64,000 nt of DNA from Escherichia coli (GTDB lineage Bacteria; Pseudomonadota; Gammaproteobacteria; Enterobacterales; Enterobacteriaceae). The notes below the pieces were generated by a model that saw only the letters and a program-made list of their open reading frames with translations, made no database searches and was not told the origin of the DNA. The position numbers and the translations under genes were made by a program. This document shows, piece after piece, positions 6,720 through 63,955 of the stretch (position 1 is the stretch's first letter; every line of letters starts with the position of its first letter). The DNA lies in the NCBI RefSeq assembly GCF_041886205.1, contig NZ_CP169029.1, one strand, 5' to 3'.

Positions 6720-7345
6720 GCCAATTTAAAGAATTTGCATCTGTCAGCGACAAACAATTAGGGTTCTTCATTGACTCTTCGCGTTGTTCTGGCTGTAAAG
6801 CGTGTCAGGTGGCCTGTAAAGACAAAAATAACCTTGAGGTTGGGCGACGTTTTCGCCGCGTGTATGAAGTGAACGGCGGTGGCTTCATCGCCACTGGAGA
6901 GGGCGGTGTGAGTCATAATGTCTTTGCTTATACCCTTTCTATTTCCTGTAACCATTGCGCGGATCCGATCTGTATCAAAAATTGCCCGACGATGGCGATG
7001 CATAAGCGTCCCGGAGACGGTATTGTGCGCGTGAATACTGATAAGTGCGTCGGTTGCGGTTACTGCGCCTGGTCCTGTCCTTACGGCGCACCGCAAATGA
7101 ATGAGCAGACCGGGCAGATGTCGAAATGCGATTTCTGTATTGATCTGCAAGCTAAAGGAGAACAACCCATTTGCGTGGCAACGTGCCCGTTGGGGGCGAT
7201 TAAGTTCGGCCCTATTGATGAGTTGCGTGAAAAGTATGGCGATGTCAGTGATGTGAAAGGTTTACCTGATTCGTCGATTACGCAGCCAAATCTGGTGATT
7301 AAACCGCATCAGGGCGCGGAAAAGGAGGCGTCACATCATGCATGA
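6716..7345 (+). CDS. 4Fe-4S electron-transfer subunit, DmsB-like
   Basis: 209 aa with four ferredoxin-type Cys clusters (e.g. CSGCKACQVAC, CNHCADPICIKNCP, CVGCGYCAWSCP, CDFCIDL...CVATCP); translationally coupled to neighbours. Confidence 0.85.
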   Translation: MSQFKEFASVSDKQLGFFIDSSRCSGCKACQVACKDKNNLEVGRRFRRVYEVNGGGFIATGEGGVSHNVFAYTLSISCNHCADPICIKNCPTMAMHKRPGDGIVRVNTDKCVGCGYCAWSCPYGAPQMNEQTGQMSKCDFCIDLQAKGEQPICVATCPLGAIKFGPIDELREKYGDVSDVKGLPDSSITQPNLVIKPHQGAEKEASHHA

Positions 7346-18467: not shown

Positions 18468-18621
18468 TTCTCTTATTAGTTAAATCATTAATACATGTGA
18501 GTAAAATTATTTAGATATATTTTTAGGAATATATTTAGTTTTTCTGACGTGCCTTCCTGAATGTTCTGGCATAGAATATTAGAGCTTATTCATCAAATTA
18601 TCATTGCCACAGGGAAAGTGC

Positions 18622-20796: not shown

Positions 20797-20850
20797 GATT
20801 GGCGTAAGGCCAGTCGGCCAGTCGCTGAAGATTCATTAAGGAGAGACTCA

Positions 20851-21828: not shown

Positions 21829-21839
21829 CACTTGCTCAA

Positions 21840-21870
21840 CAGCATTCCCGCGTGGGAATGCTGTTTCCGC
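21840..21870 (+). terminator. possible rho-independent terminator after the SinI-like gene
   Basis: Hairpin cagcattccc gcgt gggaatgctg followed by TTTCCGCATATTTT. Confidence 0.5.
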
Positions 21871-21903
21871 ATATTTTGCTTAATTCAGGATTAAGCAAAA
21901 TAT
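21871..21903. promoter_or_regulatory. perfect 14-bp-arm palindrome (atattttgcttaat-tcagg-attaagcaaaatat) 45 bp upstream of the giant ORF; candidate operator
   Basis: Read directly in sequence; function unknown. Confidence 0.35.
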
Positions 21904-21948
21904 GTTGATGCGGTAACCGTTCGTTAAATAACTGGTGGAGTTCTTTTC

Positions 21949-24900
21949 ATGTCCCAGCCCCTGAAACCCGGCACTTTTTATGTTCTGCTTGTATTGCTGC
22001 TAACCGCAATGCTGCCGGGATGGTCATGGGCGGGCTCGTCATGGCAAGACTCATCCGATACGGCGGGAGAATTTAACGGTACCGTCCCCAATGCCGACAG
22101 CGCCAGTATGCCGGTTTATCAGGGCAGTATTTGGCTTGATCCTGCAAAGACCCATGATGTTTCGTTTTCCGCTAAACCCAATGAATTTAGCGTTAATCTG
22201 GATGTGTCGAAGCTGATTGTGACGAACCCGCAGGACCTGGAAGGGGATGTGTTTACCAACCCCCGTTGGGAAAACCAAACGCCGCCAGCGGTCTCTTTAG
22301 TCTGGGCGGATGCGGCGACACCGGAAACCCCACTTAATCCTCAGCCAGTGGCTGGGCGTTCCTTTTGTGCGCAAGGGCTTGCTGGGCGTTCGCTGGTTGT
22401 CTGGCCGCAGCCAGACCCACAGCAGACCATGCCGCAACTTTATCTACGCACCTCGACAGGTTATCCCTATGAAAGTCTTCTGACGCTTGTCGATAAAAAA
22501 GTGACGTTAAATATTGCACCGGCCCAGGGCGACTTAATTTCTGTCAGTGCGGCCGGTTATGACGATACCGTGGGCGGGGCGAAAACTACCGTTGGCGGCA
22601 ATATCACGTTGACCGTTACCACCAAAGACTGCAGCGGCAACGTTGCAGGAAATATTCCTTTTATTATCAAACGCAAAGATGCTGAAAACCGACAGGGTGA
22701 GGTCAACAATGCTTCGCCGGTTGTTCTGGACAAAACTGAACTGACCACTATCGCGACCGAATATCACGGCACCACGGATGCGAACGGCGTTGCGACGATC
22801 ACGGTCACGCAACCCAACGGCCCTGGTGTAAAAACGCCGCTGGTAGCCAGTCTTTCAGGTATTGGTCAAACCAGTGAAACGGCAGTGATCTTTACCGTCC
22901 TTACCAGCCCGGATGTCCCTCAGGCCACGATGTGGGGCCATATGCCCGATACGCTAAAGGCCCATGATTATACGTTCAGTCGGCCAAAATTGGCGGCAGA
23001 AGTCGATAACGAAAATGGTACCGTTAACGATCACAATGAAACCTGGTCTACCTTCACCTGGAGCGGGGCGGATAAACATTGCGACATTTTGCCCGGTATG
23101 CGCCAGTTTGGCGCGTTGGCAACGGTGGTGCCCACGACAGTTCAGGATCTCGTTGGTTGGCCGATACAGGGTAACTACTACTGGTCATCACTGGCGGGGA
23201 TGACCGGACAGCACCATGCGGCGGATGTTTCCAACCGTAGCGAAGCGCAAAAACCGGACGATACGACGTTTATTGTCAGTTGTGTCGATAAAGAAGCTCC
23301 TGACGTTGAACCGAAACTGGTGCTAACACCGGGAAGCTATGATTCGACGTTAAAGGCGATGAAAGTAAAGGTGGGGGAAGAAGCGTCTCTGCGTGTAACC
23401 ATCACCGATAATAAAAACAATAATCAACCGCTGGCGTATTACTACTTTTCGTTACATCTGGATGACGGCATCAACCGTAAAAATCCATCGGATGCGGCAT
23501 GGGAAGCGCATCCGGTGCAGATAGCGGGTGGCAGCAATGTCCATCAGGTTGACGCGCATACCTATGAAGGCATTACGGATGTAAATGGTCAGGCATCACT
23601 GACGCTAACGCAACCGGGCGGCGCGGGCGTGAAAACACACATTACTGCGAAAATGCGCAGCGACTTCACCACGTCGGATGAGAAAGACGTGATTTTTACA
23701 GTCATTACCAGCCCCGATACTGACAAAGCCCGGATGTGGGGGCATATGCAGGGTATTATTGATTCTAATAATATCTTTAAACGTCCACGGCTGGCAGATG
23801 AAACCGACCATGAACTCGGTTCAGTGCGGGAGAACAACGAAGACTGGGCGCTGTTCGACCAAAATAGCAGCATGCAGGCTGAATGCGGTGTAGGTCATAT
23901 TCCGAGCCAGAATCAATTACAGGGTCTGTTCACGGCGCATCCTGGCAATGCGATTGGCACCGAATATGGCTGGCCGACGGCGCAAAAAGATTACCTTAGT
24001 GCGGTACAACAAGAGCCACACTCCTCCGTGAACCTGGGCACAGGTAACATCGACACCTATTCAGGCTTTAAGCAGAACTATCTCTCCTGTTCCGGTAATG
24101 AGATGGTTGCTCAGATTACCGCAACGACCGATCATGACGTTTCCGTGGGCAGCAGGGCGCAGGCTAAAGTTGGAGAAACCGTCACCATGACGGTGCATAC
24201 CTTCAATGCACTGAATAATGCGCCCGTGCCGTTTACCGCCTTCAGCATCACAAAGGAGATGGGTAAAAACCGTCAGGGGCAGACTACCGGATATACCGAT
24301 CCGACGAGTGGCGCAATTGAGATGAATGGCACGCTCTACGGAACATCCCAGGCCTCGGTGGTTTATTCCGGGACTACGGATGCACAGGGCTACGCAACGG
24401 TGGAGATTGAACAACCCCAGGGCGTGGGCTTAATTACGCCGCTAAATATTGCGCCTGTGAACTCCTATATTCCCAATACAGTAAATTACAACGTGATTTT
24501 CACCACGCCTACCAGCCCGGATGTGGTGGCGGCGCAGATGTGGGGGCATATGGATGAGACTATTACAGTCGATTCTTTAACCTTCACCCGGCCTAAACTG
24601 GCAGCGGAAGTTTCCAGCCCGGATGCGACATTGACAGAAAATAATGAAGTCTGGGCACGTGTGAGTCAGGCGAATACGTCCAGTATAAGTAAAGGTGGCT
24701 GTGGAGCGAATATGCTGCCGCGTCGATCCCAGCTTAGCGCGCTCTATGAGGCTAATAACGGTAATGCTGTACAAACAGTACACGGCTGGCCAACCCTGCG
24801 TGAGCCGTACTGGAGTAGTTCCCCAGCGGATAAAGTTCCTCATTTTTACACCATTGCACTCAATGATGGCGCACAGGCTATTGGCGGTAGCAACGCGGTT

Positions 24901-27900
24901 TATGTCAGCTGCCTGACGACGGCAAATAGTCCTGCTAACGCTATTACCTTAGAGGTGGTGGATCAGGCGCAATGGAACGCGACGGCGAAAGCGGCGAAGC
25001 TGAAAAAAGGCGAAACACTCCAGGTTAAGGTAACGGTGAAGGATGCTCAGGGCAATGCACTGTCGGATATGCCATTCACCCTGAAACGTGGCGATGGTTA
25101 TACCCGCTCAAATGAAAAACATATTGCTGGCAGCGGGGATGCGCTGGTTGCGCCAGTCATCGTCAACGGAGGCCTGGCGGATGAAACTTCACTGAATGAT
25201 ACCGCGACAGCATACGTTGCCATGACCGGCAGCGACGGCACTAAAATACTTACCATAACCCGCCCGGAGACGCATGGCACCAAAACGGCGCTGATCGCTG
25301 CGCTGTATTCTGATGCAACGAAAAACGCCAGCCTCGACACCATTTTTACCGTTGCGACCAGCCCGGACAGCGATAAGGCGAAAATGTGGGGGCACATGGC
25401 GGAAACGGTGACGGCTACTGACGGCACGGTATTTAAACGCCCGCGCTTACTGAAAGAGTGGTCAACTCAGTCCTCTCTTACTGAAGATAATGAGGTCTGG
25501 GGGTTGTATAACATCAGCGATGCAAAATCTACCAGCGATGGCTGTGGCGCTAATTATGTTCCTGCGCAGGTTGGGCTGGAGTCATTGTTTGACAATAACC
25601 GCAGCAACGCGATGAAAACCGTACAAGGTTGGCCGGTAAATACTCATTATCTTTCAAGCACCTCGAGTACGGACAGTTTATCGCAGCATAATTATAAAGC
25701 CGTCGATCTGGGCAATGGAACCAGTACCTCAATATCCGCTTCCGAGAGGAAGTTGTTAACCTGCCAGACGACCGAGGTGTTACAGGCAAGCCAGATTCTG
25801 CTGGACGCAGCGGATCCAACCACCTTCGACAGCACAAATAATGTTGTCAAAGTTAAAAAAGGCGAAGCGGCAGTGGTGCGTGTAACCACGAAGGATTCGC
25901 AGGGGAATCCTGTAGGAAATACCGCATTTACCCTCAAACGAAACTACAGCGTGAACAGGGCTAATGCGTCGAATACCACGTCGATTGCTTCATTGGTGGT
26001 AACGGATGCATGGGGAAATACTCAGGACAGTTTTCTTTCCACGTCCCTGGTCATTTATGGCGTAACGGGGGCCGATGGCACCACCACCTTTACACTGAAA
26101 CAAGACCAGTCTACCGGCTTAAAAACGGAACTCACGGCAGCGCTGGACTCCTCCAGCAGCATTACATCGTCGCTTCCCGTCGTCTTTACGGTGCTTACCA
26201 GCCCGGATTCGCCAAAAGCCAAATTCTGGGGGCATATGGCTGAAACGGCGACAGGCGATGACGGTCTCATTTATAAAAGGCCATTGCTGAGAGACGAGAT
26301 TAGCGCCTCTAGCGGTATCAGCACCCTGACAGAAGAGGGGGAAAGCTGGTCTATGTTCCGGGCGGACAATGCTAATGATACTTCGATAAGTGGTTGTGGC
26401 GCGGAGTATGTTCCAACTGACAGTGAACTTAAGGCCATTTATGCGCACCAGGGGGGGAGCGCATTGCATGGTGCTATCGGCTGGCCCGTTTCGAAGCCCT
26501 ATATCTCGAATACCGTCGCAGATGCATTCACTCAACTCTTTAAGTTTGATGTCGTTTCGTTGAACACGGGAGATGAAACACAGATTTCATCAACTAGTGT
26601 AGGGCCTCTTAGCTGCCGTACCACGCCTGTCGCCGTTGCCAGTCAGATTATTGTTGAGGCGAACGATGCGGCGCAATTTGTCAAAGTTGACGATACCTTG
26701 AGTGCGCTGAAAGTGAAAAAAGGTGAAGACGCGGTGATTCGCGTGGTGACCAAAGATGCGCAGGGGAATACCGTGCCCAATGTTCCCTTTATTCTCAAGC
26801 GAGAGGGTTCAACGAATCGTCAAAATGTCACGATGATAAATAAGTCGATTACGGTGATTAACGCGGCAGGGACTTCTACGAATGTGCTTAGTTCGTCAAC
26901 ACTGCTTTATGGGGTAACGGGCGCGGACGGGACTACCACGTTTACGGTAAAACAAGATGATTCTATGGGTCTGATGACCAATATGTACGCTCAGTTGTAT
27001 CAGTCGACGATAGAATCCAACAAATTACCGGTGATGTTTACCGTTATAACCAGCCCGGATACGCCTCTGGCAAACTACTGGGGGCATATGTCTGAAACCT
27101 TCACGACAAGGTCGGGGGTTGTCTTCAAGCGGCCAATGCTTAGTGCCGAGCATCCAGCGGGGCAGTCAACCGTGGATAATAATGAATCCTGGCTTTCCTT
27201 AAATACAGCAGCAAAAAATGATGTCAGCAAATCAGGCTGTGACGAACCTTATCAACCGTTATTAAGCGAACTTCAGGATTTGTACAGTGAACATCCTAAT
27301 GGTGCGATAGGAACCGATTTAGGCCTTCCGTTGACGAAAACCTGGTGGGCTTACGATAAAGTGGCCTATGCGAACGCCTGGTACGATCAGTCTGTTAATT
27401 TGTCGAATGGGTCAAGCGCCAGGGCGTCGTCAACCACCGTTGCGTTTGTGCCCTGTCTGGTAAACCCTCATGCAGTGGCTGCTTCTATTGAGATAACCTC
27501 CACGGCACTGGATGCGGAGAAAACGGCCAGTAACGATGGTCGCCCCAGCGCAACCGCACCGAAAGGTACGGCGATCCGGATGACGGTGATTGTGCGGGAT
27601 AGCGCAGGAAATCCATTGCCCGGCGCCAACTTTAACCTCGTACGCGGGACGGCATTGGATCGTGCAAAATACAGTGTCGATAGTTCGGCTGATGATCTGA
27701 CCCTCGTGCCTGTCACACCTGCTGGCGTAAATATGACTCTCACGAGTAATACATCAAAAGCACTGTTGACGACAGGCAGTGATGGTAAAGTGACCTTTGA
27801 TGTGACGCAAAACGGGACTTATGGGCTCGCAACCCCGCTCACTGCAACATTGCTACGCGACACTTCAATAAGCGCCACGATGGATGTCATTTTCACGGTG

Positions 27901-30000
27901 ATAACCAGTCCCGACTCACCGAAAGCAAAATACTGGGGTCATATGGCCGACACGTTTACCAGCAGTGCGGGGGTGACCTTTAAACGACCACTACTGGCAG
28001 CGGAAGCGACCTCCGGGTCCTCGGTTGGCAGTAATAATGAGTCGTGGTCATACCTTAATGTTAACGACAGAGCTACGTCGGATTGCTCACTGGAGTATCA
28101 GCCGCGTCTCAATGAGTTACAGGGGTTATATAACGATCATCCTGGCGGGGCCATACAGACGGATCTGGGGTTACCTGTAGCTGCCGGAAGTGGAAACTGG
28201 TGGGCTTATGAAATGAGTATACCTAACCCCAGCGGGTCGGTGTGGTTTTACGGCATCATTAATTTGAAAACGGGACAATCGTCGACCACGTCGAGTGGAT
28301 TCGCTTTAATGCTCTGCCTGACGCAGCCGCATACGGTACCGGCAAGCCTTACACTGTCATCAACCGCCTACGATGAAGGCAGAACCGCCAGCAATGGTGG
28401 CACACCTACGTCATCTGTGAAAAAAGGTGAGACGCTTCCCTTAGTGGTGACGATCAAAGATGCCAATGGTAACCCCGTTGGCGGCGAAGGCGTTACGCTC
28501 AAGCGCGCGCAGGCGAAAAGCCGTTCAGGTATCTCTGTCTCCTCCACTACCGTTGATGATCTTATTTTAAATGAAGTCACACCGGAATCAGCCAGCTTTT
28601 CCTTCGCCGCGGATTTGGCATCATGGAGCGGCATCACCGGCAGTGACGGCACTGTAACGTTCAATATTACACAAAAAAATACCATCGGCCTGGTAACGCC
28701 GTTTACAGCCTCATTGGGGCGAAATCCGCAGGTCACCGCCAACCAGGACCTGATGTTCACGGTGGTAACCAGCCCGGATTCGCCGAAGGCAAACTACTGG
28801 GGGCATATGCCAGCAACCTTGACGGCAGTGAATGGTGCGGTATTTGAACGCCCGAAATTGTGGAGTGAACTGCCATCGACCTCCGGCGTCGGCAAGATCA
28901 ATAACAATAATGAGGACTGGCCGTACTATTCACCGACAAAAAAATCTGATGAGAGTGTGACCCCTTGCGAAGTGGCAAGACAGCCTCTGCTTAGTGATTT
29001 AAATTCGCTGTCTGCGCGTTATCCGGATAACACCTTCGCCGCTGAAACGGGCTGGTCTGTGTATTACACCTGGTGGGCAGAGGATAAATCCGCCGCGGGT
29101 AAAGATCAGTCGGTGGATTTGAGGAATGGCACGCTGTATACGAATGCAACAGGAGCATTTCTGCCATGCCTGGTTAATGCGCGTTCAACCGTTTCCAGCG
29201 TCACGCTCACCTCAACGGCGTTTGACGCTACCACTCAGGCGGCGAAAGTGAAAAAAGGCGAAGCCATGCCCGTTACCGTAACGGTGAAAGACAGCGCCGG
29301 GAAAACGGTGGCGAATGTGGCTTTTACCCTGAAACGCGGTGATGCTGCGCCAAGAAACCCAGGTATGGCCTTGTACGGCGATGTGGATGCGATGGATGAC
29401 ATGACCGTTCAGCCGACATCGGGAGCGGCGGTGACGTGGCCTGACAGTGGCAATGCTTTGCAGGGAACCACCGGTTCTGACGGTACGGCGACGTTTATGG
29501 TTAAACAGAATAATACGCCGGGTTATAAAACGCCGTTGACGGTCACGTTGGACAATAACACCAGCATCACTGCGACAATGGACGCTATTTTCACCGTAGT
29601 GACCAGCCCGAATGTCTCAAGCGCCTATTACTGGGGGCACATGGCAGATACGACCACGGTGAATGGTAAAACATTGCATCGCCCGTTGTTGGCATCGGAG
29701 CTACCTGCGAATGCTTCTTCCCCAGCCACGCCTGACGTAAACAATGAAGCCTGGGCTATGGGGCATATGGTGGATTCAAGGAATTGGGATATCGAGGCGC
29801 AGTGTGGCAGCTTGACCAACGCGCCAAACGATGACGACTTAATGGGTCTGTATACTAACTTTAGTTCGCTGGGTTGGCCTGCATCCCCGAGTTTTCCTTA
29901 CTTATCTTCTCAGAGATGCGGCGTGTTTGAAAACAGTGGACAACAGGACTGCGCTATTGCGCCAGGCAGCACAAAAGGTTTTGTGACTTGTACCCAATAA
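21949..30000 (+). CDS. giant secreted repetitive protein (2683 aa) with about 9 tandem ~280-aa modules containing Ig-like (BIG-type) segments; RatA/RatB/ShdA-family-like
   Basis: Signal peptide at the N-terminus; motif FTV-TSPD...WGHM recurs 9 times with 800-866-bp period (DNA positions about 22895, 23698, 24500, 25341, 26181, 27031, 27888, 28754, 29590); each module also has VKKGE...V.VTVKDA.GN...FTLKR and C(G)..Y.P...L..LY motifs. Confidence 0.8.
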
Positions 30001-34794: not shown

Positions 34795-34826
34795 AAAACC
34801 CTCTGTTACTACAGAGGGTTTTTTAT
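34795..34826. terminator. bidirectional rho-independent terminator between guaA and yfgI
   Basis: aaaaccctctgt-tact-acagagggtttt with flanking A and T runs. Confidence 0.75.
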
Positions 34827-34862
34827 CTTCAAGAATTATAGGCTTGAAGTTACTTACATCGA

Positions 34863-35402
34863 TTAATTAAACCAGCTGTCCGATTTGTTCTCTTCTGCTT
34901 TGCCCACGCTTTTCATCAGATCGCGACCGCCTTCAGTCATATTTCTGTTGGCGTCAGCTTCAGATTGCACCACATCGGTTTGCGCAGCTTTGTGCTTCAG
35001 TTCCTGATCGATAAATTCGTTTTCTCGCTTAACGCGGGCTTCTTCTTTCGCCAGCGCCAGTTTTTGTTTCTGAATCTCTAAGCTGCGTAGCTCATCTTCA
35101 TAACTTTGATCGCGTTTTTTGTCCGCAGAGGCTTCGGCGTCCAGTTTATCCTGACGAGCTTTCTTATTTGCTGCTGCCGTGGCCGCTCTTTTGTTAGCGG
35201 CGGCCTGGGCATTTGCGCGACGTTGCTTCTCTTGCTGGATTTCCCTGTTGCGCTCCGCGACCCATTCGTCATGCTGCCTTTGCTCTTCATTTTTACCTTG
35301 CTGTTCCGCTTCTGCGACAGCAGAGAGTTGATCCTGCAATGATGAGGCGATAGCCGGATAGCTTAAGGAGGCCAAGATGGCGCAAAGAAAAACTTTCTTC
35401 AT
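34863..35402 (-). CDS. yfgI: secreted Lys/Glu/Ala-rich coiled-coil protein YfgI
   Basis: 179 aa, signal peptide MKKVFLCAILASLSYPAIA, charged low-complexity repeats. Confidence 0.75.
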   Translation of the reverse strand: MKKVFLCAILASLSYPAIASSLQDQLSAVAEAEQQGKNEEQRQHDEWVAERNREIQQEKQRRANAQAAANKRAATAAANKKARQDKLDAEASADKKRDQSYEDELRSLEIQKQKLALAKEEARVKRENEFIDQELKHKAAQTDVVQSEADANRNMTEGGRDLMKSVGKAEENKSDSWFN

Positions 35403-35417
35403 GACTCCTCCTGATTA

Positions 35418-35936
35418 TTAGCTCTTTTCAGGACATTTAGTATTTGGCTGAATACGCGTTTCGTTATACGTTGTGGTAATAACAACGGCTAAACCTGTCG
35501 TAAACTGGCACTCTTTACCCACCTGGGTGGAGGTATACACTTTGGTGCCTTCCTTATACGTTAAAGAAACACCTTCCACTAAGGTTTTATCATTCACCAT
35601 AGAACCCGCTGCCGCGCCTACAGCTCCGCCGCCAACTGCACCTGCCGTCGTTCCGGAATTGCTGCCAGACCCGACGTTGTGGCCGATAACACCGCCAGCG
35701 ACCGCGCCAATAAGCGCGCCGAAGGCTTGTGCGTTCCGTTTATTTTGGGAGTTGTCTACGGCAACTTTTGCGGGAAGAATGGAAATAATATTAACGGTTT
35801 TAGTTTCTTGTTTGGTATTCAGTTGATCGGTTTGATAAACATCGGCGGCATGATCATCAGCATTTGACTGGCATCCTGCCAGAGTGAATGACGCTAACAT
35901 TGCCACAGGCAGAAGACATTTTTTAAATTTCATCAC
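35418..35936 (-). CDS. yfgH: outer-membrane lipoprotein with glycine-zipper domain YfgH
   Basis: 172 aa; lipobox LAGC; Gly-rich GxxxG zipper (GALIGAVAGGVIGHNVGSG...). Confidence 0.75.
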   Translation of the reverse strand: MMKFKKCLLPVAMLASFTLAGCQSNADDHAADVYQTDQLNTKQETKTVNIISILPAKVAVDNSQNKRNAQAFGALIGAVAGGVIGHNVGSGSNSGTTAGAVGGGAVGAAAGSMVNDKTLVEGVSLTYKEGTKVYTSTQVGKECQFTTGLAVVITTTYNETRIQPNTKCPEKS

Positions 35937-51815: not shown

Positions 51816-53831
51816 TTACAACACCTCGCGAACCGAGATCCCCAGACGCTGCATTCGTGACAGCAGCGTGGTGCGCTTCATCCCTAATCGTGTCGCCGCG
51901 CCACGGGGCCCGGCAACAATGCCATTGGTTTCTCGCAATACCTGAACAATGCGCTGACGTTCTTCTTCGTCATTCTCTGGCGTCGTCGGGTGCAGCAACT
52001 GCGCCATTGAACTGCGAAGCGCTGAATCTTCATTTAGCGTCGGCAGTAAACGGCTTTGTCGGACATTTAGATGTAAATTCAGACTGTTACCACGAGTCAA
52101 CAGTACCGCCCGCTCAATCACGTTTTCCAGCTCGCGCACGTTGCCCGGCCAATCCCACGACATCAACTGGCGTAGTGCCTCGGTCGGGATGGCGTCAATT
52201 GCGCGATTCATATGGCGCGCCATTTTTTGCGTGAAATGCTTTGCTAAAAGAGGGATATCTTCCGGACGGTCGCGTAGCGGCGGCAATTCCAGTGGGAAGA
52301 CATTCAGGCGATAAAAGAGATCGCTGCGAAACTGGCGATCTTCAACCATTTGCCACAAATCACGGTTGGTGGCGGCAATGACTCTGACATTCACCGGGAT
52401 CGTTCTACTCCCGCCGAGACGCTCAATCTCCCGTTCCTGCAATACGCGCAGCAGTTCAGGCTGAAGTTCTAACGGCAGATCGCCAATTTCATCGAGAAAC
52501 AACGTGCCGCCATCGGCAATTTCAAAACGACCACGATGGGTATTAATCGCACCAGTAAACGCCCCTTTGTCATGACCGAATAACTCACTTTCCAGAAGAC
52601 TGGCGGGGATGGCAGCGCAGTTGATTTTGACCAGCGGCTTGTCGTGTCGCGGGCTAAGTTGATGGATCGCTCTGGCGATCACCTCTTTGCCGGTTCCGGT
52701 TTCACCACAAATCAACACTGTACTGTCGCTCTTCGCCACAATATCTACCTGCTGGAGCAGGTCTTCCATTGCCTGGCTTTGATAGATAATGTCACCGACG
52801 CCCAGATTCGAAAGGAGCTGCTCGCTAAGCTGGTGGTTTTCTTGCTGCAAACTTTCCTGCAAATCGGTCATGCTACGCCAGGCATCGGCATTGCCAACGG
52901 CAATAGCGATGCGATCGGCTATGTGTTGTAGTAGCTGGCAGTTTTCCTCACTAAAGAGAGTGGAAGAGGTATGCGCCAGCAACAATGCACCCGGTGTATG
53001 GTTGCCAAAGGTAAGCGGTATCAGGAGCGCAGATTCGCAGCCGTTAGATGCAAGTAAGTGTAATAACGGGTCGCGTTGCCAGAGAAACAGATCGTCTGCA
53101 CGGTGCGTCAAGGTCGGTTGTCGGGTTTGTAGCGTTTGTGTCAGCAATACACTTTCGCCAGGCATACAGCGTGGCAGACACGCACAATGTGAGGCAGAAA
53201 GATCGCTGCACCACAGGCTGAACTTATCGTTCTTTCGATGATCTCCCAGTACCATACTGACTGAAGCCAGACCGAAAAAATGATGGATCTCACGGGCGAC
53301 GTCAGCGATCAGATCGTCGAGATCAAGATGTGACAGCACTGCATTAGTAATATCAACCAGTACCCGATGATGATCGCGATCTTTCTCCAGCAAACGCAGC
53401 GCCACCTGCTGTTCTTCATCATTGAGCCATGATTGCAGAACCGGGGTGATTATCCGCGCCAGCCAGTTAAACAGTGTGCAATCTTGGGGAGTAAAACGGC
53501 TGCCGTGGGTACGAATAAAGCGTAGCTCCGCCATTCCACTACTGCCGAGAAGGACGGCGTGACGCGAATAATCGACCATCTCGCCCTGATACTCTGTTGT
53601 TGCCGTCACATCGCTGCCATCATCATGGTAGCGGTAATAGAAGTTGCTTTTGAGAACATGCAGTTCAATAAGTTGTACCGGGCTGAACGGCGGCGGCAGC
53701 GGGATGAAGGCGCGTAATAAAGACGCCTTACTGTGTTTCTGCGCTAACCGCTCCGCGAGCATTCCGTTTACCGCTTCAATTGTTATTCCTTGCGGCGGGG
53801 CAAACATCGCCTCGTCTGACATAGCCATCAA
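51816..53831 (-). CDS. hyfR: sigma-54-dependent transcriptional activator of the hyf operon
   Basis: 671 aa (670 if the second Met is used); GAF-like N-domain, AAA+ sigma-54 interaction domain ([14 protein letters not shown]), C-terminal HTH. Confidence 0.9.
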
Positions 53832-53857: not shown

Positions 53858-54271
53858 TCACGTAATTTTTCTGGCCATCAGATAGATGGCCGGTTCCTGC
53901 ACAATTTCATCCAACAGATGAATGAATTGAATGCTACGCGCCTGCCACACAGACGTCGCGTCATCCGCCAGTGGCGCGAATGCCCGGGTCAACAGGGCGG
54001 TGTGGCTGGCGTCAATAACAATCTCACCAAAAGTCATCACCCCCAGCATCTTACGTCGGGCTTGCTCCTCTTCGACCAGTGCAAGCCAATCTTCGTATTC
54101 CGTCAGTGGGCAGGGGAAGGCGACATTCAGACAATCAATCACGCCAACGTGATGACCGATAGCCAGCGAGTAATACATTACCTGAGAGCTGTGTTCCGGC
54201 ATCTCGTCGCTACTGGCGACAAACTTTTTTCGCAGCGTCCAGAAAACAATTTCCCCGCACTCTTCAGTCAT
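53858..54271 (-). CDS. hyfJ: hydrogenase-4 maturation/assembly protein (HycH-like)
   Basis: 137 aa from [17 protein letters not shown]; the ORF track extends 21 codons upstream. Confidence 0.8.
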
Positions 54272-55021
54272 GTAACCCCCGGAGTACGCGAAAGAGTTGC
54301 TGAACGATACTATTGAGACGTGGATCGTCGGCATCGCGCAACCAGGTGTTAACCCGATTTCCTGTAGGATCGTCGCTTAAATGGCGCAGGAGCCGATCGC
54401 AAATTTCTCGCCCCTGACGATAGCCCGCCAGCCGCCGCGCTTCTCGCTCAATGGCGATACGCTGTGATGGCGGGATCTGCGGCCACAACGGTTGCATAGT
54501 CACCCCGGTGGGATCGCGATAATCCACCGCGTGAATCTTCTGTTGCAGCAAACCGAGCGCCACGGCGAAACCGTGAATGGTGGCGGCCGGTGTTGGCGGG
54601 CAGCCGGGGATCCAAACATCAATGGGGACAATGGTGTCGCTGCCGCCCCAGACGCTGTAGAGATCGTGGAAAATCCGCCGCCGGCACCGCACGCGCCGTA
54701 GGAAACACAGATTTTATGATCGGGGGCAGACTCATACGCCCGAAGTGCAGGCATACGCATCGCCCGGGTGAGTGCGCCAGTAAATAACAAAATATCGGCG
54801 TGACGCGGTGATGAAACAACCTTAATGCCAAAACGTTCTGCGTCGAATACTGGTGTAATGGCGGCAAAAATTTCGATTTCACAGGCGTTGCAGCCACCGC
54901 AATCGACGCGATAAACGTAGGCTGAGCGACGGATATCCTGTAGCAAATGCCGCTTCATCTTTTGCGTTTGCTCGTCCAGCGTGATGGGCTGGCTGACATA
55001 TTGCGTAAGCACTGGACTCAT
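54264..55021 (-). pseudogene. hyfI: hydrogenase-4 small subunit (NuoB-like), disrupted by a -1 frameshift near 54675
   Basis: Two ORFs (54500..55021 and 54264..54692) in different frames. The first reads intact through ...[14 protein letters not shown] and the second resumes at [27 protein letters not shown]; 116 + 136 = 252 aa, matching the NuoB motif spacing (CANGGG-YYHY-SYSVV); locus length 758 bp instead of 759. Confidence 0.75.
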
Positions 55022-55563
55022 AGCTGCTCCTTAGCCACCAGCGGTACATCTGTATCGTCGTTGAGCAGCGTCGCGCGTTGTTTGCACTCCGGGCAGACGC
55101 TCGCTTGCGCCCATAACATTTCGCGGTTTTGTGGCGCATTTTGTTGCTGTGCCAACAATTCAGCAGCCAGTGCGACGGTTTTTTGCGGGGCAAACGGGCG
55201 TTCGCAACGGCTGCAACGTTGTAGATGGAACGTCGCGCGGGTATAGAGATCGGCTTTATTGGTGACGGTCAGTTCAAAGTTATTGGTAAGCTGGATGGCT
55301 CTGGTCGGGCACACTTCTTCACAACGTCCGCAGTAAATACAACGCCCCAGATAGAGCTGCCAGGTGCGCGAATTTTGCTGGTCGTCGGTCTGGATAGTCA
55401 GCGCATTTGCCGGACAAGCACAGGCGCAGGCACCGCAGGCAATACATTGGCTGGGCATCAGGTCCGGTTTCCCGCGAAAGCCTGGGCTGACCTCCAGTGG
55501 CGCGAAGGGATATTTCACCGTCGCGGTTCCGGCGCGCATAATAGTTTTCAGTAACTTCAGCAT
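55018..55563 (-). CDS. hyfH: hydrogenase-4 ferredoxin-like subunit (2x 4Fe-4S)
   Basis: 181 aa; [12 protein letters not shown] and [12 protein letters not shown] motifs. Confidence 0.9.
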
Positions 55564-55572
55564 CTTCTGTCC

Positions 55573-57288
55573 TTACTTCAGCGGCGAACGGTTACGATCA
55601 ATGCCGTAGCGTTCGATCTCTTTATACGGCACGGTTTTTGACTGGCGCTTGCGCACATCTACCAGCGTCACACGGTCGGTACAGGAGTAGCAGGGATCAA
55701 GGCTACCGATAATCAGCGGTGCGTCAGAAACGGTATTGCCGCGCAGCATGTAACGCAACACCGGCCAGTTGGCGTAGGTGGCGGCACGACAGCGCCAGCG
55801 GAACAATTTTTGGTTATCACCGAGCATGCTCCAGTGCACGTCTTCGCCGCGTGGCGCTTCAACAAAGCCCAGCGCGAATGCGTGAGGTTTATAGCTAAAG
55901 CCTTCGGTCAGCAGTGGGGTATCCGGCATGTTGTCGAGGGCAAATTCCAGCATTGCCAGCGAATCAAACGTCTCTTTGACACGGACCATCATGCGGGAGA
56001 AGACATCGCCGCCGGTAAAGGTAAACAGTGTTTTTGGAATATTGCCGTAGTCGGCGTAGGGGTGATCAAAGCGCAAATCACGGGCAAAACCACTGCCGCG
56101 GATCAGCGGCCCTACAGGGCTATAATCACGGGCGATTTGTCGGTCGAGAATGCCAATGCCCTGAGTGCGTTGTTCCATATTCGGCGTAGCAAGCAGCATC
56201 TCTACCAGCTCCGACACGTCGGCGCGCATCTCGCGCACCAGTTTCAGCGTTTGCAGACGTTGCTCTTTGAGAATATCGCGGCGAACACCACCAATCAGAT
56301 TCAGACCGTAGGTTTTACGCGACCCGATCAGCAATTCCGCCATCGTCATCGACTTTTCCCGCACGCGGAAAAATTGCATAAAGCCGGTATCAAAACCAAC
56401 GAAATGGCAGGAGAGGCCAAGGTTAAGCAAATGACTGTGTAGCCGTTCGACTTCCAGCAGAATCGAGCGAATAGTATGTGCTCGTTGCGGCACCTCAATC
56501 CCCAGTGCATTTTCAACCGAGTTGGTATAGGCCACACTGTGGGCAAAACCGCAAATCCCACACACGCGGTCCGATAAGAAGGTCACTTCGTTGTAGCCCA
56601 TCCGCGTTTCTGCCAGTTTCTCCATGCCGCGATGGACATAAAACAGGCGGTAATCAGCATCGACAATTTGCTCGCCATTCACAAACAAGCGGAAGTGACC
56701 CGGTTCATCGGAGGTGATATGCAGCGGGCCGACAGGGATCACCCGCGCATCGCTGTTGCCCTCATTGATAAACGCATACGTTTCGGAATCTGTCGTCGGT
56801 TCAGGGCGCAGTCGATAATCCATCGCATCTTTGCGCAGCGGATGCATATCTTCCGGCCAGTCATCGGGCAACACCAGGCGACGCTGATCCGGCAGGCCAA
56901 CCGGAATCAGCCCGTACATATCGCGAATTTCTCGCTCGCCCCAGACCGCGGCAGGGACGCGCAGTGTGACTGACGGAAACTCCCGACTGTCGGCATCGAC
57001 CAGTGCCTTAACCACGATCCAGCATTTTTCGGCCCCTTCCATAGAAAGGGCATAATAAACGGCGTAATGACCGTTAAGTGTCCGCTCGTCGTTGCCAAAC
57101 AGGACCGGAAGCCAGCCATCATGTTGATAATAAAGATAATGTACAACGTCAGGCAGCAGATTGATTTTCACCGTAATGGTGACCTGTTCAGGCGTTTGTC
57201 GCTCTTCATCCAGCACCGCGCCGGGGAACTGCGTTTTCAGGGCGGCGAGAATCGCTTCGCCACGATTTGACGATGAATTAACGTTCAC
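55573..57288 (-). CDS. hyfG: hydrogenase-4 large (NiFe) subunit
   Basis: About 571 aa from the GTG at 57288 (RBS GAGAAA); NiFe-hydrogenase large-subunit motifs ([12 protein letters not shown]-terminal, [10 protein letters not shown]-terminal); exact start uncertain. Confidence 0.85.
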
Positions 57289-58858
57289 TGTGTTTCTCCG
57301 AAACAGATGCGGTGCCTGAAGGCAAAAAATCATGCCAGGTGCTACGTTGTGCAGGCAGGTCGTGCGTCCCTGAGAGGACTATAGTGGAAGCGCCCGCCAG
57401 GATCCTGATGACAGGTTGTGGAATATGCGTTCCCATCGCCAGCATCATGACCAGCAGAATCACCATTGGCGAGGTGGTCAACCAGCCGAGATCACCCCGG
57501 TTAACGGCCTGCGGCGGTTTCGCCATTAACACCCGCGCAGCCATCCGTACCAGGCCCGCCAGCACCAGCGTTAACAGCAATAACAGCATGACGATAATCA
57601 GCAGGTGATTACGTGCCAGTCCGGCGGTAACGGTCATAAATTCGCTAAGAAAAATGTTGAAGGGCGGCATCCCGGCCAGCGCCAGCGCACCGCCGCCAAA
57701 CAGCACGGCGGTAAATGGCATGATTTTGAGCATCCCGCAGACGACGTTGAGATCGCGCGTGCCGTACTTGAGCAGTACATTGCCGGAACCGCAGAACAGC
57801 AGCGTTTTTGCCAGACTGTGGTTTAAGGTGTGCAGCAGCGCGGCAAAAATTCCCAGCGGCCCGCCAATGCCTAGCGCCACCGCGACCAGTCCCATGTTCT
57901 CCACGCTGGAGTACGCCAGCAGACGCTTAATGTCCCGCTGTACCAGAATGAAAAATGCCGCCACGGCAACCGACAACATGCCGAAGATGAGCAACAACCG
58001 GTTGGGGAAATCGCTGCCGATGGCCTGGCAGATAATGATGTAATAGCGAATCATCACCAACAGCGCGCAGTTCAGCAATACGGCGGAGAGCAGGGCGCTG
58101 ACCGGACTCGGCGCTTCACTGTGAGCATCCGGCAGCCAGGCGTGCATAGGAAATAGCCCGGTTTTGGTACCAAAGCCAATTAGCACAAACACAAAGGCCA
58201 ATAGCATTAATGTTGGGTCAAGCAAGGACTATTGCTTAAGAACCTCGCTCCAGAATATCGCCATTTCTGCCTGCGGCATAACGCTGGCGGCGTTGGCGTA
58301 TACCAGCACGGTACCGAACAGACCAAAAGCGACGCCAACAGTACAAATAATGATGTACTTCCATGCAGCTTCCAGCGATGAACGCTGACCGTAAATGCCT
58401 ACCAGAAACGCCGAGCTTAAGGTGGTGGCTTCGATCGCCGCCCACATCACAATCAGGTTATTGCTGGTAACAACCAGCAGCATGGTGAACAAAAACAGAT
58501 GGAAGAAACCGTAGTAATCGCACAGCGTAACGGGTGAAAGCTCGCCGTGTGCCACTTCATGACGCATGTAGCCAATCGAGTAAACACCGGTGAGAAAGCC
58601 AATCACACCAAGAATGGCGAGGAACAAACCGCCCAGACCATCAATATGAAGCCACAGTCCCGCAGCGAATATTTCTCCCGCACCAGCGGCAGTTTGAACC
58701 AACCAGAGTGCCAGAATCAGCAGCAGTGTGATCCCTAAGCTATGTAATACTGTCACCGCGCGAGTCGCAGAGTGCCCCCGTTTCCGGCAGGCAAAACAGA
58801 GCAGCGAAAAAAGCAGCGGCGTGAGCAGGAGTAAAGCGAACATCACAGAATAACTCAT
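57278..58858 (-). pseudogene. hyfF: hydrogenase-4 membrane subunit (NuoL/M/N-like), interrupted by an in-frame amber codon (TAG at 58229-58231)
   Basis: ORFs 58229..58858 (209 aa) and 57278..58225 (315 aa) are in the same frame, separated by TAG plus one codon; 209 + 1 + 1 + 315 = 526 codons, i.e. one gene with a nonsense mutation. Confidence 0.75.
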
Positions 58859-58862
58859 CTCA

Positions 58863-59513
58863 TTATCCCTTCAGCGCGGTCAAGTTGTTCACGTCCAGCG
58901 TGCCGTGGGTACGCCATATTTTTCTTGCCAGTAACACCATCACAATGACGGCGAAGATGGCGTCGGTAGCGATACCTATTTCCACCAGTTCCGGTGCTCG
59001 CCAGGCAAGAAGCGCCAGCACCAGATGGGAGCCGTTTTCCATCAGGCAGTAACCAAAAATTTGCCGCAGGATATTGCGCTGGCTGACAATGCACAGCAGG
59101 CCAAGCAGAAAATGACCTAACGCTACCGCCAGCGCCGGTTTCAGCCCGGTAGCCATCGGTAGCTTCATGGGCTGAACGACAAATGCGCAAAGCAGGACAA
59201 TTAACGCCGCGAGCAGTGCCATCATTGCCGGACCGAATAACGCTTTTTCCGGGATGTTCTGGGGAATATTTCGTGCAGCGTAAGTCATGATTAACGGTAC
59301 CAGCAGCACTTTGGTGATAAAGGCGCTGGCGGACCAGATCAGCAGTTGCTCTGCGGCGAACAGGCACGAGAGAGTGGCGAAAATAGACACCAGCACCAGC
59401 GACTGGCAGGCGTAAAATCCGCATGACAGGCGATAGCTTTTGACGCTAATCACAAACAGCGATGTCAGCATCATCAGTCCCGCCAGATTATTTACGATCA
59501 TAGAACCGGTCAT
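58863..59513 (-). CDS. hyfE: hydrogenase-4 membrane subunit
   Basis: 216-aa hydrophobic protein in the conserved position. Confidence 0.9.
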
Positions 59514-59524
59514 TCATCATCTCC

Positions 59525-60963
59525 TTACTGCAACCAGGTCGCGGCGATTACGCTGGAAATCAGCGACATCACAATCAGTACAATCAACACCAGGCGCATT
59601 GACCCTGGCAGCGGTGCGGCATCGGCGACGGCCTCGCTCGGTTTGCCAGGCACAACGCGACCAAACCAGCGAATAAACCAGGCGAAACTGGCGACCGATT
59701 CAATCATCAGCAGAATCATGGCGGGCAGCAGGATCCAGTACTCCACTGACAACGCAAAACCGGCAGCAAACAGCGGGAATTTACTGAAGAAGCCGTTGAA
59801 CGGCGGCACACCGGTAATCGCCAGCGCTGCCACGCAGAAACCCACGCCTGGCAACGGCAGGGTGTGCAATACGCCACGCAGACGCGGCAACAAGCGCGTG
59901 CCGCAGCTGTAACTCAGCGCACCTGCTACAAGGAAAAACAGGCTTTTAGCGAACGCGTGGTTGACGATGTAGGCGATGCTACCCTCCAGCGCCAGCCGCG
60001 AGCCGAAGATGGAGAGCGACAAACCGAAGAACATCCAGCCAAGTTGAGTGATGGTCGACCAGGCCAGCAACCGCTTCATATCCTGCTGTGGCAAATACAT
60101 CAGAAAGCCATAAAGAATGGTGACCAGGGCCATGACCATGCCAACGCCGCCAATCACATGCGGGATATTGCCACCGTCGATAATGGCGCGGGCAAAAATG
60201 TAAACGCCCACTTTCACCATCGATGCGGCGTGGAGATAGGCGCTGATCGGTGTTGGCGCTTCCATTGCATCCGGTAGCCACGCTTGCATCGGTAGCTGGG
60301 CCGATTTCCCCCACGCGGCAAACAGGATGCCGCCATAAACCAGATAACGTGCGTCGCCGTGTAACTCGCTCATCGCGCTAAGCGCAAACGTTCCGGTCTG
60401 CAAAAACAGCGTGGCGGCGGCAAGATACAACCCCAACGAGCCGATATGAGTGATAAGTAACGCTTTTAGTGCTGAACGCTGTGCTTTATCGCTCTGGTAA
60501 TAACTGATCAACGCCCAGGAGCAGCCGCCCGTAATTTCAAAAAACAACAACTGACCGAGCAGCGTCGAGGAGAGTACCAGTCCCGCCATCGCGCCGATAA
60601 ACAACAGCAAAAATGCGTAATAACGATTCGTGCCGTTATGCGGGTGTTCGCGATTTTTATCCGTCAGATAACCCGTGGAGTAGATCGTGACCAGCAAACC
60701 GAGAAACACCACCACAAACAGAATCAGCGTACTCACGCGATCAATGAGCAGGCCAAACAACGCCACATCCCCCACGTTGACCAACGTCAACGTGACGGCA
60801 ACTTTATCGGCCTGATAAAACGCGGAGATCAGCGACAACATGCACAGCGTGGTCAGTGCGGCGAACAAAACCCCCATTCGGCGGCCCGACGTTGTGGCGA
60901 AAACGAAACGACCAGTGCGCCGATAAAAGGCAGCATTAACGTCGTCAGAGCAAGATTTTCCAT
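59525..60963 (-). pseudogene. hyfD: hydrogenase-4 membrane subunit (NuoL/M-like), -1 frameshift in a C5 run (plus strand 60871-60875)
   Basis: True start ATG at 60963 with RBS TAAGGAG reads MENLALTTLMLPFIGALVVSFSPQRRAAEWG and then hits TGA. The 450-aa ORF continues in the -1 frame from VLFAALTT; 31 + 448 = 479 aa; locus length 1439 bp is not a multiple of 3. Confidence 0.75.
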
Positions 60964-60979: not shown

Positions 60980-61927
60980 TTACAGACCGGTTAACCAGAA
61001 GACCCATGCAAGCGCAGCAAGGCTGAAGCCAAGCCAGGTCACATGGTGAATGAGTAAAAAACGCCCGCGTGCCAGCGTGTTTTCTGCGATTGAGGCCAGT
61101 ACAAAAATCAGCAAAACCTTGAGCAGCGTAACGACAAGTGAAGTCAGCAGGCAGGCGAGAGAAAGTTCTTGCGCGCGCCCAAAGGGCAGAAACAGGGCCA
61201 CAAACAGTGCTGCCATCACGACCTGTTTCAGCCCCAGCCCCCATTTCGCTAGCGCCAGCCCGGCACCGGAATATTCGGTCAGCGGGCCTTCCTGTAATTC
61301 CTGTTCTGCTTCAGCAACATCAAAGGGAATTTTTCCCATCTCAATGAAGCAGGCAAAACCACAGGCCAGTAACGCCAGTACGGTGGTTAGCGGCGAGTTC
61401 CAGCCCGTTGCCAGCGTATTGCTGATCATCTCGATATGCGTGGAACCTGCTATCAGCGCCAATACCAGCAGTGAGAGAATGAGCATGGGTTCGACCAGAA
61501 TGCCGAGCGTCAACTCGCGACTGGCACCGACTCCCGCAAACGGGCTTCCGGTATCCAGCCCGGAAAGAGCAAAGAAAAAACGAAACAGGGCAAGAAGATA
61601 GATAAGGGTGATCAGATCGCCGCCGCCCGCAAAAGGGGAAACGGTAATAAAAAGTGGTAGGGCCATCGCCAGCACCAGCATGCTGCTGATTAATACCCAC
61701 GGCATCAGGCGGAACATCAGACCTGAAGATATAGGCGCAACTTCCTGGCGTTTAAACAGTTTGTGGATATCGCGATAATCCTGCCAGATCCCCGGCCCGC
61801 GGCGGGAGTGCATACGCGCGCGTATCTGCCGGGAAATACCCGTAAAAAGCGGGGTTAGCAGCAGCAGAATCACGGCCTGTGCTAACGCAAAAATGACCAG
61901 ATATCCGTCGCAAAGAGTTTGTCTCAT
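60980..61927 (-). CDS. hyfC: hydrogenase-4 membrane subunit (NuoH-like)
   Basis: 315 aa from MRQTLCDGYLVIFALAQAV; the ORF-track start is 7 codons upstream. Confidence 0.9.
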   Translation of the reverse strand: MRQTLCDGYLVIFALAQAVILLLLTPLFTGISRQIRARMHSRRGPGIWQDYRDIHKLFKRQEVAPISSGLMFRLMPWVLISSMLVLAMALPLFITVSPFAGGGDLITLIYLLALFRFFFALSGLDTGSPFAGVGASRELTLGILVEPMLILSLLVLALIAGSTHIEMISNTLATGWNSPLTTVLALLACGFACFIEMGKIPFDVAEAEQELQEGPLTEYSGAGLALAKWGLGLKQVVMAALFVALFLPFGRAQELSLACLLTSLVVTLLKVLLIFVLASIAENTLARGRFLLIHHVTWLGFSLAALAWVFWLTGL

Positions 61928-61937
61928 GGTGATTTCC

Positions 61938-63955
61938 TTAGACGGCAATAGCGATTAGCAGCACAACCAGTGCGGCGACCACATACAGGCAATAGAGACG
62001 AAAGTCGCCGCTTTGCAGATGCTGTATTTCTTTGGCCAGCCGTTGGGTGGCGCTCACGATGGGGCGGATCACCCGCTCATCCCAGAAGGGTTCTGTGCTC
62101 TGAGCCCTGGCGGTGACGTGCGCAAGACCTTTATTTAGCCTCAGCGTAGGGTCGAGCTGTTGTCGTAGACGAAATAGCGCAGAAAAGACCACACGCAGCG
62201 GCTGCATCACGCCATTGCCTGACGGGGCCATCGCATTTTCCCAGCCGTAGCCGCATGCCCAGGCATCTCCTGTGCGACGAAACGCTGCGCGGCGCGAACG
62301 ACACCACAGCCAGTAAAGGCCAGGCAGCAAAGGCATCGCCAGTAGTAACAGCAACAGTAATGAGGGTGTGACCCGTGTATGAAACGTGCCGGGTACAAGT
62401 GCTATTCCGCTGGCGACAGTGACGGGAGGGGTATTGGTAAACGCATGGGCAATGTGCATTATCTTCGGTGCCAGCCAACTGGCACTGAGCGCAATTAATA
62501 CGCAGAGTGCCGCGAGCAGTAGCATGGCGACGATCATTGTATTTGGCACTTCCTGTGCCTCTTCAGCGTGTGTGCTGCGCGGCGCACCACAGAAAGTAAT
62601 ACCGTAGATTTTGACGAAGCACATTACTGCCAGCCCACCAGTGACTGCCAGCATTACCATAGCAATAGGACCCGCAAGTTGTAGCGCTACGGCTTCCACA
62701 CGACTTAGTGAGAACAGCAACTGCCAGGTGTACCATTCGCTGATAAAACCATTCAGCGGAGGAATGGCTGATATCGCGAGGCAACCAATCAGGCATGCTG
62801 CGGCTGTCCACGGCATCCGTTTCGCCAGTGCCCCCATTTTTTCCATGTCGTGGGTATGCAAACGCGAAATAATCGCACCCGCGCCGAGAAATAGCAGCCC
62901 TTTGAACAGCGCATGGTTGAGCAGATGAAACAGTGCGCCGAGCAGTCCAACCACGGTGAGCAGCGGGTCGTGCAGTGACAGACCGTCCATCGCCACACCG
63001 ACCGCCAGCAAAATAATGCCGACGTTTTCGACGGTACTCCAGGCCAGCAGCCGTTTGATATCCTGTTCCGCCAGTGCATACAGCACGCCCAGGAGCGCGG
63101 AGATTGCGCCGATCGCCATCACCAGAGTGCCCCACCACAGAGGCAAACCCGTTTGCGCCAGCAGATCCATCGCTACTTTCAGGATGCCGAAAATACCGAT
63201 TTTGACCATTACGCCAGACATCAACGCCGAAGCGTGCGATGGTGCGGCAGGGTGAGCGCGCGGCAACCAGCTGTGCAACGGCATCATCCCGGCTTTCGCG
63301 CCAAAACCGAAAAAGGCCAGCAGAAACACCGCCGACGCCAGCCCCGGAGAAAGTGAAAGCGTGCGAAACTGGCAAAATCGAGGCTGCCGCTTTCGCGCCC
63401 CATCAGCAAGAAGGCGATCATAATCAGCACCGATCCGGCGTGGGCGATAAAAAAGTAGAGCATGCCAGCGTTGATCGACGTTTTATCCTGCCTGGCAATG
63501 ACCAGAAACCAGGAAGACAGCGACATCATTTCAAACAGCACGATGAACCAAAAAGCGTTGTCCATCACCAGCAGGGCAACCATCGATGCGATGAAAAGAT
63601 TCATAAAGAAGCCCATCGCCGCCGCGCCTTTGCCCTCGTATTCGCGCATATAAGTCAATGAATAGAGCGAACAAACCACCACCAGCAAGGAGATAACCAG
63701 CACCATAAATGCCGAGAGGCTATCCATTCGCAGGGTTAAATCGGCAAAGTCAAAAGGGGTGGCAAAATGGGCGACTAAAGTTACACCAGCATGTAATTGC
63801 GTAATTCCGCTGATGATGCCAATCACGCCGCCCACCAGCGATGTGATGCCGGAAAGCTTAATAGCCAGTCTGTCCAGACCGAGTAAAAACAGCGAAGCCA
63901 GACTGGCAAACAGATAGAGGATCAGCGACCAGGTTAATAATTGCAGGGCATCCAT
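61938..63955 (-). pseudogene. hyfB: hydrogenase-4 membrane subunit (NuoL-like), -1 frameshift around 63360-63370
   Basis: ORFs 63284..63955 (real through ...GSLDFASF) and 61938..63329 (resuming RTLSLSPGLAS-VFLLAFFGFGAKAGMMPLHSWLP) are in different frames; 197 + 475 = 672 codons with one shared nucleotide. Confidence 0.75.

Follow-up and report, generated by a model that had tools for sequence, protein, structure and literature searches.

The hyfI gene, encoding the small subunit of hydrogenase-4 (Hyd-4), carries a one-base deletion in the 64,000-nucleotide stretch of Escherichia coli DNA analysed here (contig NZ_CP169029.1; hereafter the window). This lesion is very probably a genuine, inherited loss-of-function allele residing in an operon that is cryptic and evolves under relaxed selection, and we hold this explanation as a whole with high confidence. 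The features of the gene are listed below in window coordinates.

54264..55021, minus strand: hyfI pseudogene (hydrogenase-4 small subunit, NuoB/HycG type), from alignment to K-12 b2489
Between 54674 (T) and 54675 (C) in plus-strand numbering, minus-strand gene: site of the 1-nt deletion in hyfI, from the K-12 alignment
54500..55021, minus strand: reading frame that begins at the hyfI start and codes for 173 aa, of which residues 1-116 are native and the following 57 are out of frame
54264..54674, minus strand: C-terminal frame orphaned by the lesion (I117 to D252, then the native stop), from the ORF list and reading of the sequence
54689..54691, minus strand: codon of C111, the third cluster cysteine (GACG), kept upstream of the lesion
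54600-54602, minus strand: codon of C141 (PGCPP), in the orphaned C-terminal frame
54684, minus strand: linked SNP at gene position 338, GTC to GCC, V113A, from allele comparison

The original prediction had named this gene as hyfI and placed the loss of a single nucleotide between 54665 and 54690, and both statements are borne out. Alignment to K-12 b2489 yielded 11 mismatches and one gap over 759 columns, the window gene being 758 nt long as opposed to 759 nt in K-12, and this nucleotide match, together with synteny between hyfH and hyfJ, identifies the gene as an orthologue of hyfI. It lacks the single uninterrupted frame of about 252 codons and belongs to the orthologue group as a pseudogene. 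As the comparison against orthologues is deterministic, chance plays no part in it. The sole gap corresponds to gene position 348, the T of the Gly116 codon (GGT), where GGC GGC GGT ATT TTC in K-12 corresponds to GGC GGC GG- ATT TTC in the window. The missing base is a unique T with G and A on either side, outside any homopolymer. The lesion had been assigned to the GGCGGCGG run; the place was right, but the run itself is unchanged and is the same in both hyfI alleles, the lost T adjoining its 3' end. Translation from the hyfI start is native up to ...GACGAGGG, with G116 surviving since GGA also encodes glycine, and then continues out of frame to a stop at 54500-54502 (codon 174). A second open reading frame (54264..54692) carries the PGCPP motif and extends through ...LHD to the native stop.

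Conceptual repair of the gene by restoring one base results in a 252-aa HyfI that aligns without gaps around the site to HycG, MbhJ and NDUFS7/NuoB, recovering the family spacing as had been proposed. The repaired protein matches HycG (7Z0S chain G) over residues 9-247 (E=1.9e-98), with 150/239 identical residues overall (62.8%) and 110/133 in the NuoB-like core (83%), and it also matches MbhJ (6CFW_J; E=2e-41) and dozens of NDUFS7/NuoB/Nqo6 chains (E about 1e-27). Alignments to hycG, nuoB and K-12 hyfI, which had been put forward as a check, all agree on one missing base. The break falls within the C-x-x-G-G-G segment common to HycG, MbhJ and NuoB/NDUFS7 (aligned segment: HycG CGNSGGIFHDLYCVWGG; NDUFS7 CANGGGYYHYSYSVVRG), five residues past C111 and 25 residues ahead of C141 in PGCPP. 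The motif had been worded to include an SxSVV element as well; the C-x-x-GGG part of that wording stands, but SxSVV is the NuoB/NDUFS7 form (CANGGGYYHYSYSVV), and at this place HyfI and HycG read CG(A/N)(G/S)GGIFHDLY(S/C)VWGG.

The loss of the C-terminal half of the protein, including the CPP cluster-ligand region, had also been foreseen, and everything from I117 onward, C141 included, is indeed out of frame. Cysteines C41, C44, C47 and C111 are encoded upstream of the lesion and C141 in the other frame, so that the four cluster-ligand cysteine positions are not found together on one polypeptide; C111 and C141 we take to be two of the four [4Fe-4S] ligands, by homology to the complex I N2-cluster subunits. 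Scores against the NuoB-subfamily model NF005012 of NCBIfam (TIGR01957; cut-off 116 bits) show the same division, with 120.7 bits for repaired HyfI, which passes, compared with 66.3 bits for the actual 173-aa product, which does not reach the whole-protein cut-off, and 39.5 bits for the C-terminal open reading frame. The 173-aa HyfI would retain three cysteine positions out of the four that make up the NuoB-type [4Fe-4S] site and is predicted to lack C141, the remaining last third of the Rossmann-like core fold and the HycG-type C-terminal extension. Given these losses, we infer by homology that the truncated protein would be unable to act as the electron-transferring small subunit docking onto HyfG.

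In order to follow the allele through complete E. coli genomes, a 52-nt junction probe was used (window 54649-54700, 26 bases either side of the deletion) that shares with the intact allele no exact word of the 28 bases that megablast needs. Matches were obtained in 685 of 5,426 genomes (682 at ≥99% identity), each match being one chromosomal site under an annotated hyfI. As the hyf locus was found in 4,294 of these genomes, the junction is present in about 16% of hyf-bearing genomes (685/4,294), and about 84% have an uninterrupted gene. Named carriers include E. coli W, O26 RM10386, O111:H- 110512, O111:H8 strains, O103 WL1467 and the probiotic strain G3/10; the W, O26, O111, O103 and G3/10 carriers are presumably all of phylogroup B1. 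An intact hyfI frame is present in K-12 and in strains ETEC 503025, 504211, 120899 and 600468. RefSeq annotates hyfI as ‘frameshifted’ in all 14 carriers opened (G3/10, 08-00022, W, O26, O111, O103, CUWW11, KSC64, WP5, A38, 98208, MB06173, S6aCHROMc and wlxctx60). The nearest genomes, wlxctx60 and 6EVA, are 100.0% identical to the window over 40000-64000 (24 kb), the hyfI site included, and the wlxctx60 annotation lies at the same coordinates as in the window; G3/10 shows 99.45% identity over the hyf region. The pseudogene is thus already known, as it is annotated publicly in hundreds of genomes. A literature search for a description of this frameshift allele found none, the only related reports being hyf loss in B2/F/G and, in O157 SS17, a frameshifted hyfA.

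This distribution bears directly on whether the missing base could be a sequencing or assembly error, the isolate's own hyfI being intact at 759 nt. GC-rich tracts such as GGCGGCGG can be awkward for some sequencing chemistries, and in one genome, SZQ1, the T is found on the carrier haplotype. Against an error, the lesion is not private to one assembly: many laboratories, using various platforms, have produced the 685 complete genomes that contain this junction, the two nearest genomes are 100.0% identical to the window over 24 kb, and the lost T is unique between G and A rather than part of a homopolymer. An error of this kind is extremely unlikely.

The linked substitution 338C (V113A), ten bases upstream of the deletion, was present in each of the 14 carriers compared, and all five of the sampled intact alleles lack it. 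The flanks of the carriers vary, with at least three upstream haplotypes (the window/G3/10/O103 type, the W type and the O26/O111/CUWW11 type) and at least two downstream (O103 versus the others). Because 338C is common to all 14 carriers while the flanking haplotypes vary, the comparison indicates one origin for the allele, followed by recombination. A single T would have been deleted once in an ancestor that already had V113A, or that gained V113A together with the deletion, and about 16% of hyf-bearing E. coli would since have come to carry the allele, both by vertical descent and by recombination. Carrier-specific substitutions in the orphaned C-terminal frame amount to about five (two nonsynonymous and three synonymous), a tiny sample for a test of selection.

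A 45-mer probe demanding both 338C and the T, run on the 5,426 genomes, matched a single one, SZQ1 from anaerobic sludge (NZ_CP173996.1, 10181-10939), in which hyfI is intact and hyfB and hyfD are both frameshifted. Its hyfI may be a surviving ancestral haplotype, a revertant or an assembly quirk. SZQ1 could also be taken as the one apparent ‘on’ state of a contingency switch that turns hyfI on and off through repeat slippage, and the site does adjoin a short GGC GGC GG repeat. That repeat is, however, equally long in both alleles; the indel is a single non-repeated T that alters the copy number of no homopolymer or tandem repeat, the carrier haplotype is 685 times ‘off’ and once ‘on’, and switching would be pointless in SZQ1 with hyfB and hyfD still broken. 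Phase variation is a vanishingly improbable account of the allele.

The remainder of the hyf operon occupies the last 14 kb of the window and is collinear with K-12 from hyfB to focB at 98.7% identity. Its genes, and the further lesions within them, are as follows.

63955..61938, minus strand: hyfB
61927..60980, minus strand: hyfC
60963..59525, minus strand: hyfD
59513..58863, minus strand: hyfE
58858..57278, minus strand: hyfF
57288..55573, minus strand: hyfG
55563..55018, minus strand: hyfH
55021..54264, minus strand: hyfI
54271..53858, minus strand: hyfJ
53828..51816, minus strand: hyfR
From 51794, minus strand: focB
63365, minus strand: 1-nt deletion in hyfB that shortens CC to C at about gene position 591 and ends the frame early, at codon 224
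60871..60875, minus strand: 1-nt deletion in hyfD (G6 run to G5), premature stop at codon 37
58229..58231, minus strand: nonsense change in hyfF, Ser210 TCG to TAG

With hyfB, hyfD, hyfF and hyfI all interrupted, the Hyd-4 of the window is, as far as its sequence can tell, dead four times over. Like the hyfI junction, these lesions occur widely in complete E. coli genomes: the hyfB junction 51-mer was found in 1,264, the hyfD junction 47-mer in 1,102 and a 55-mer centred on the hyfF SNP in 293. In hyfG, an in-frame length difference of 48 nt (16 codons) relative to K-12 was observed at about 56086-56133, the window, W and G3/10 having the long form and K-12, O26, O111 and O103 the short one. 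The alignment break has a 10-nt overlap, which suggests a deletion between short direct repeats; Tandem Repeats Finder called no tandem repeat at this length difference.

Comparison of the hyf-hyfR-focB region in other strains revealed the following combinations of broken genes.

W, O26 RM10386 and O111 110512: hyfI only
O103: hyfD (209 nt shorter than K-12), hyfH (-7 nt), hyfI and focB
CUWW11, KSC64, 98208 and S6aCHROMc: hyfB, hyfD and hyfI
WP5, A38 and MB06173: hyfD (208-nt deletion), hyfI, hyfR (stop at codon 317) and focB
ETEC 503025 and 504211: hyfB, hyfD, hyfF (-1 nt) and focB, with hyfI intact
120899 and 600468: hyfD and focB, with hyfI intact

At least one further lesion in the locus was present in 10 of the 13 hyfI carriers for which the whole locus was in hand. 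Other strains carry at least ten further lesions in varied combinations across hyfB, hyfD, hyfF, hyfH, hyfR and focB, and among those seen elsewhere are a second hyfB frameshift, another -1 change in hyfD and several frameshifts and stops in focB. The counts of 1,264, 1,102, 685 and 293 suggested a nested, stepwise decay in the order hyfB, hyfD, hyfI, hyfF; this model was rejected because W, O26 and O111 carry the hyfI lesion only and several ETEC strains have lesions in hyfB, hyfD and hyfF with an intact hyfI. On the sequences compared here, the hyf locus is instead a mosaic of many independent knock-outs that have been shuffled by recombination. In the three carriers in which hyfI alone is broken (W, O26 RM10386 and O111 110512), the frameshift is the first hit to the locus and not a late one, and neutrality is not to be assumed in those strains.

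Rates of substitution were compared through pN/pS at segregating sites in 12 genomes, a small sample partly picked for lesions. In this sample, hyfA-J had 106 nonsynonymous and 170 synonymous sites (pN/pS 0.21) and hyfR plus focB had 30 and 64 (pN/pS 0.14), compared with 3 and 123 (pN/pS 0.008) in the six neighbouring housekeeping genes yfgO, bepA, arsC, hda, uraA and upp. The contrast between hyf and its adjacent genes in the same genomes is therefore about 25-fold, with the hyf value (about 0.2) still below 1. These values point to strongly relaxed selection on the hyf locus, and the hyfI allele would persist because the operon is cryptic in E. coli and selection on it is relaxed. Published work describes the same locus from other directions: engineered promoters, fusion alleles and proteases yielded no FHL-2/Hyd-4 activity from E. 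coli hyf (PMC7654741), hyf is poorly expressed natively and lacks an accessory gene (PMC7384014), and the F/G/B2 lineage has lost the operon altogether (PMC6896753; PMC2617782). The frequent knock-outs and relaxed selection reported here agree with the laboratory failure to detect Hyd-4/FHL-2 activity, and the count of 4,294 hyf loci in 5,426 genomes fits the loss from the F/G/B2 lineage.

The frequency of the allele could alternatively reflect adaptive loss, in which the HyfI knock-out has been positively selected and hence has become common on several haplotypes. The allele has reached about 16% of hyf-bearing genomes, where it is flanked by no fewer than three haplotypes upstream and two downstream; it is the only lesion in the O26/O111 and W lineages, which are successful, and the locus has been knocked out independently many times, all of which is compatible with such selection. 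Nevertheless, ordinary homologous recombination accounts for the diversity of the flanks, the pN/pS values point to relaxation and not to a sweep, and to our knowledge no selective benefit from HyfI loss has been described. Other lesions are comparably or more frequent (hyfB in 1,264 genomes and hyfD in 1,102), as drift plus clonal expansion predicts, and that prediction applies here to a gene set without detectable activity (PMC7654741). Adaptive loss is accordingly rated as improbable, and inheritance under relaxed selection as the much better reading of the same frequencies.

A different possibility is that the frameshift is present but bypassed, through a -1 ribosomal shift after GGA, through transcriptional slippage or through reassembly of separately made halves. 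A -1 shift at GGA would give exactly the wild-type GGGIFHD sequence, all other hyf genes are intact in W, O26 and O111, and the C-terminal frame is open in 14 of the 14 carriers. The open downstream frame is nonetheless expected by chance at less than 1% divergence. A search of GGC GGC GGA TTT TCC ACG for an X XXY YYZ slippery heptamer found none, and -1 re-pairing of the GGA and TTT tRNAs (onto CGG and ATT) would leave a first-position mismatch. T runs reach 4 nt at most, which is not enough for the polymerase to slip efficiently. No stimulatory RNA structure was evident in the 141 nt around the site (-56.6 kcal/mol compared with a shuffle mean of -54.1, z = -0.59), and the sole in-frame candidate start for the C-terminal half, a GTG at 54692, has no Shine-Dalgarno sequence upstream. 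With heptamer, RNA structure and Shine-Dalgarno sequence all absent, recoding and separate expression of the C-terminal half were rejected. In addition, the frameshift is not conserved across orthologues as a recoding site, being present in 685 of 4,294 hyf-bearing genomes with the gene intact in K-12 and four sampled strains; the gene is uninterrupted in about 84% of hyf-bearing genomes, and ten of the 13 whole-locus carriers have additional lesions. Any form of bypass is highly unlikely.

Loss of function through the frameshift may also extend to the gene downstream. In the frameshifted hyfI, the stop falls 228 nt upstream of the hyfJ start, compared with the normal 8-nt overlap. Termination-reinitiation coupling has been measured for hyfH-hyfI and is strongly distance-dependent, decreasing by 80-90% at a distance of 38 nt in two of the three gene pairs tested (PMC10666635). 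By analogy with that gene pair, hyfJ translation is probably uncoupled in the frameshift allele because ribosomes would stop 228 nt early.

For the strains in which only hyfI is broken (W, EHEC O26 and O111), one further idea can be raised, namely that Hyd-4 stays usable there by borrowing its paralogue HycG (83% identical in the core) as small subunit, or because an unconventional, rare -1 shift at GGA-TTT yields a little full-length HyfI. We consider this very unlikely; if it were true, the frameshift would retune Hyd-4 or make the enzyme hyc-dependent, and would not kill it.

By itself, the hyfI lesion is of little weight, as public annotation already flags the pseudogene. What it contributes to is natural genetic evidence for a non-functional operon, through independent and frequent knock-outs in hyfB, hyfD, hyfF, hyfH, hyfI, hyfR and focB. 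It also matters for the choice of strain in H2-production engineering and in metabolic models, where hydrogenase-4 is not to be assumed in W, O26, O111 or G3/10.

Elsewhere in the window, several further differences from G3/10 were noted. A four-gene operon of the DMSO/selenate-reductase family lies at 4338-9013, between pbpC and ndk, and is absent from that place in G3/10; its A subunit is of the dmsA/ynfE type (1130 bits with TIGR02166), and the other three genes encode a dmsB-type subunit, a membrane protein and a ferredoxin-like protein. An adhesin island at 18604-30000, between der and xseA, is likewise absent there in G3/10; its genes encode SinH, an inverse autotransporter (NF033423, 1467 bits), SinI, and a RatA-like repeat protein of 2,683 aa (NF011844, 5240 bits). 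Two small genes (179 aa, and a 172-aa lipoprotein-like open reading frame) are found on the minus strand at 34826-35935, after guaA. G3/10 has an IS1A element in the place of these two genes, which appears to be a change in G3/10 and not in the window.

Set beside known systems, the closest reference for the window gene is K-12 hyfI (b2489, NP_416984.1), to which 747 of 758 aligned bases are identical. Both genes occupy the same place between hyfH and hyfJ, overlapping hyfH by 4 nt and hyfJ by 8 nt in each case, but K-12 hyfI is intact with 252 codons, whereas the window gene lacks T348 and differs by V113A, H8Y and V84L. The RefSeq hyfI pseudogenes H4P47_RS06745 (G3/10), WFL_RS13940 (W) and AC6IW3_RS15080 (wlxctx60) have an identical junction and the same length of 758 nt; the lesion is the same as in the window, while flanking haplotypes and companion hyf lesions vary by strain. 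HycG, the small subunit of hydrogenase-3 (formate hydrogenlyase-1), is the paralogue of HyfI and shares with it CG-x-x-GGIFHDLY, PGCPP and the C-terminal extension. Unlike the window hyfI, it is the product of another gene in another operon, outside the window, and is intact and active in E. coli. More distant members of the same fold family are the cluster-N2 subunit of complex I (NuoB/NDUFS7/Nqo6) and MbhJ (6CFW chain J), which have the GSCANGGG and PGCPP positions as in HyfI. These proteins match HyfI at E values of about 1e-27 to 1e-41, are without the HycG/HyfI C-terminal extension, and are members of quinone- or ferredoxin-linked complexes.
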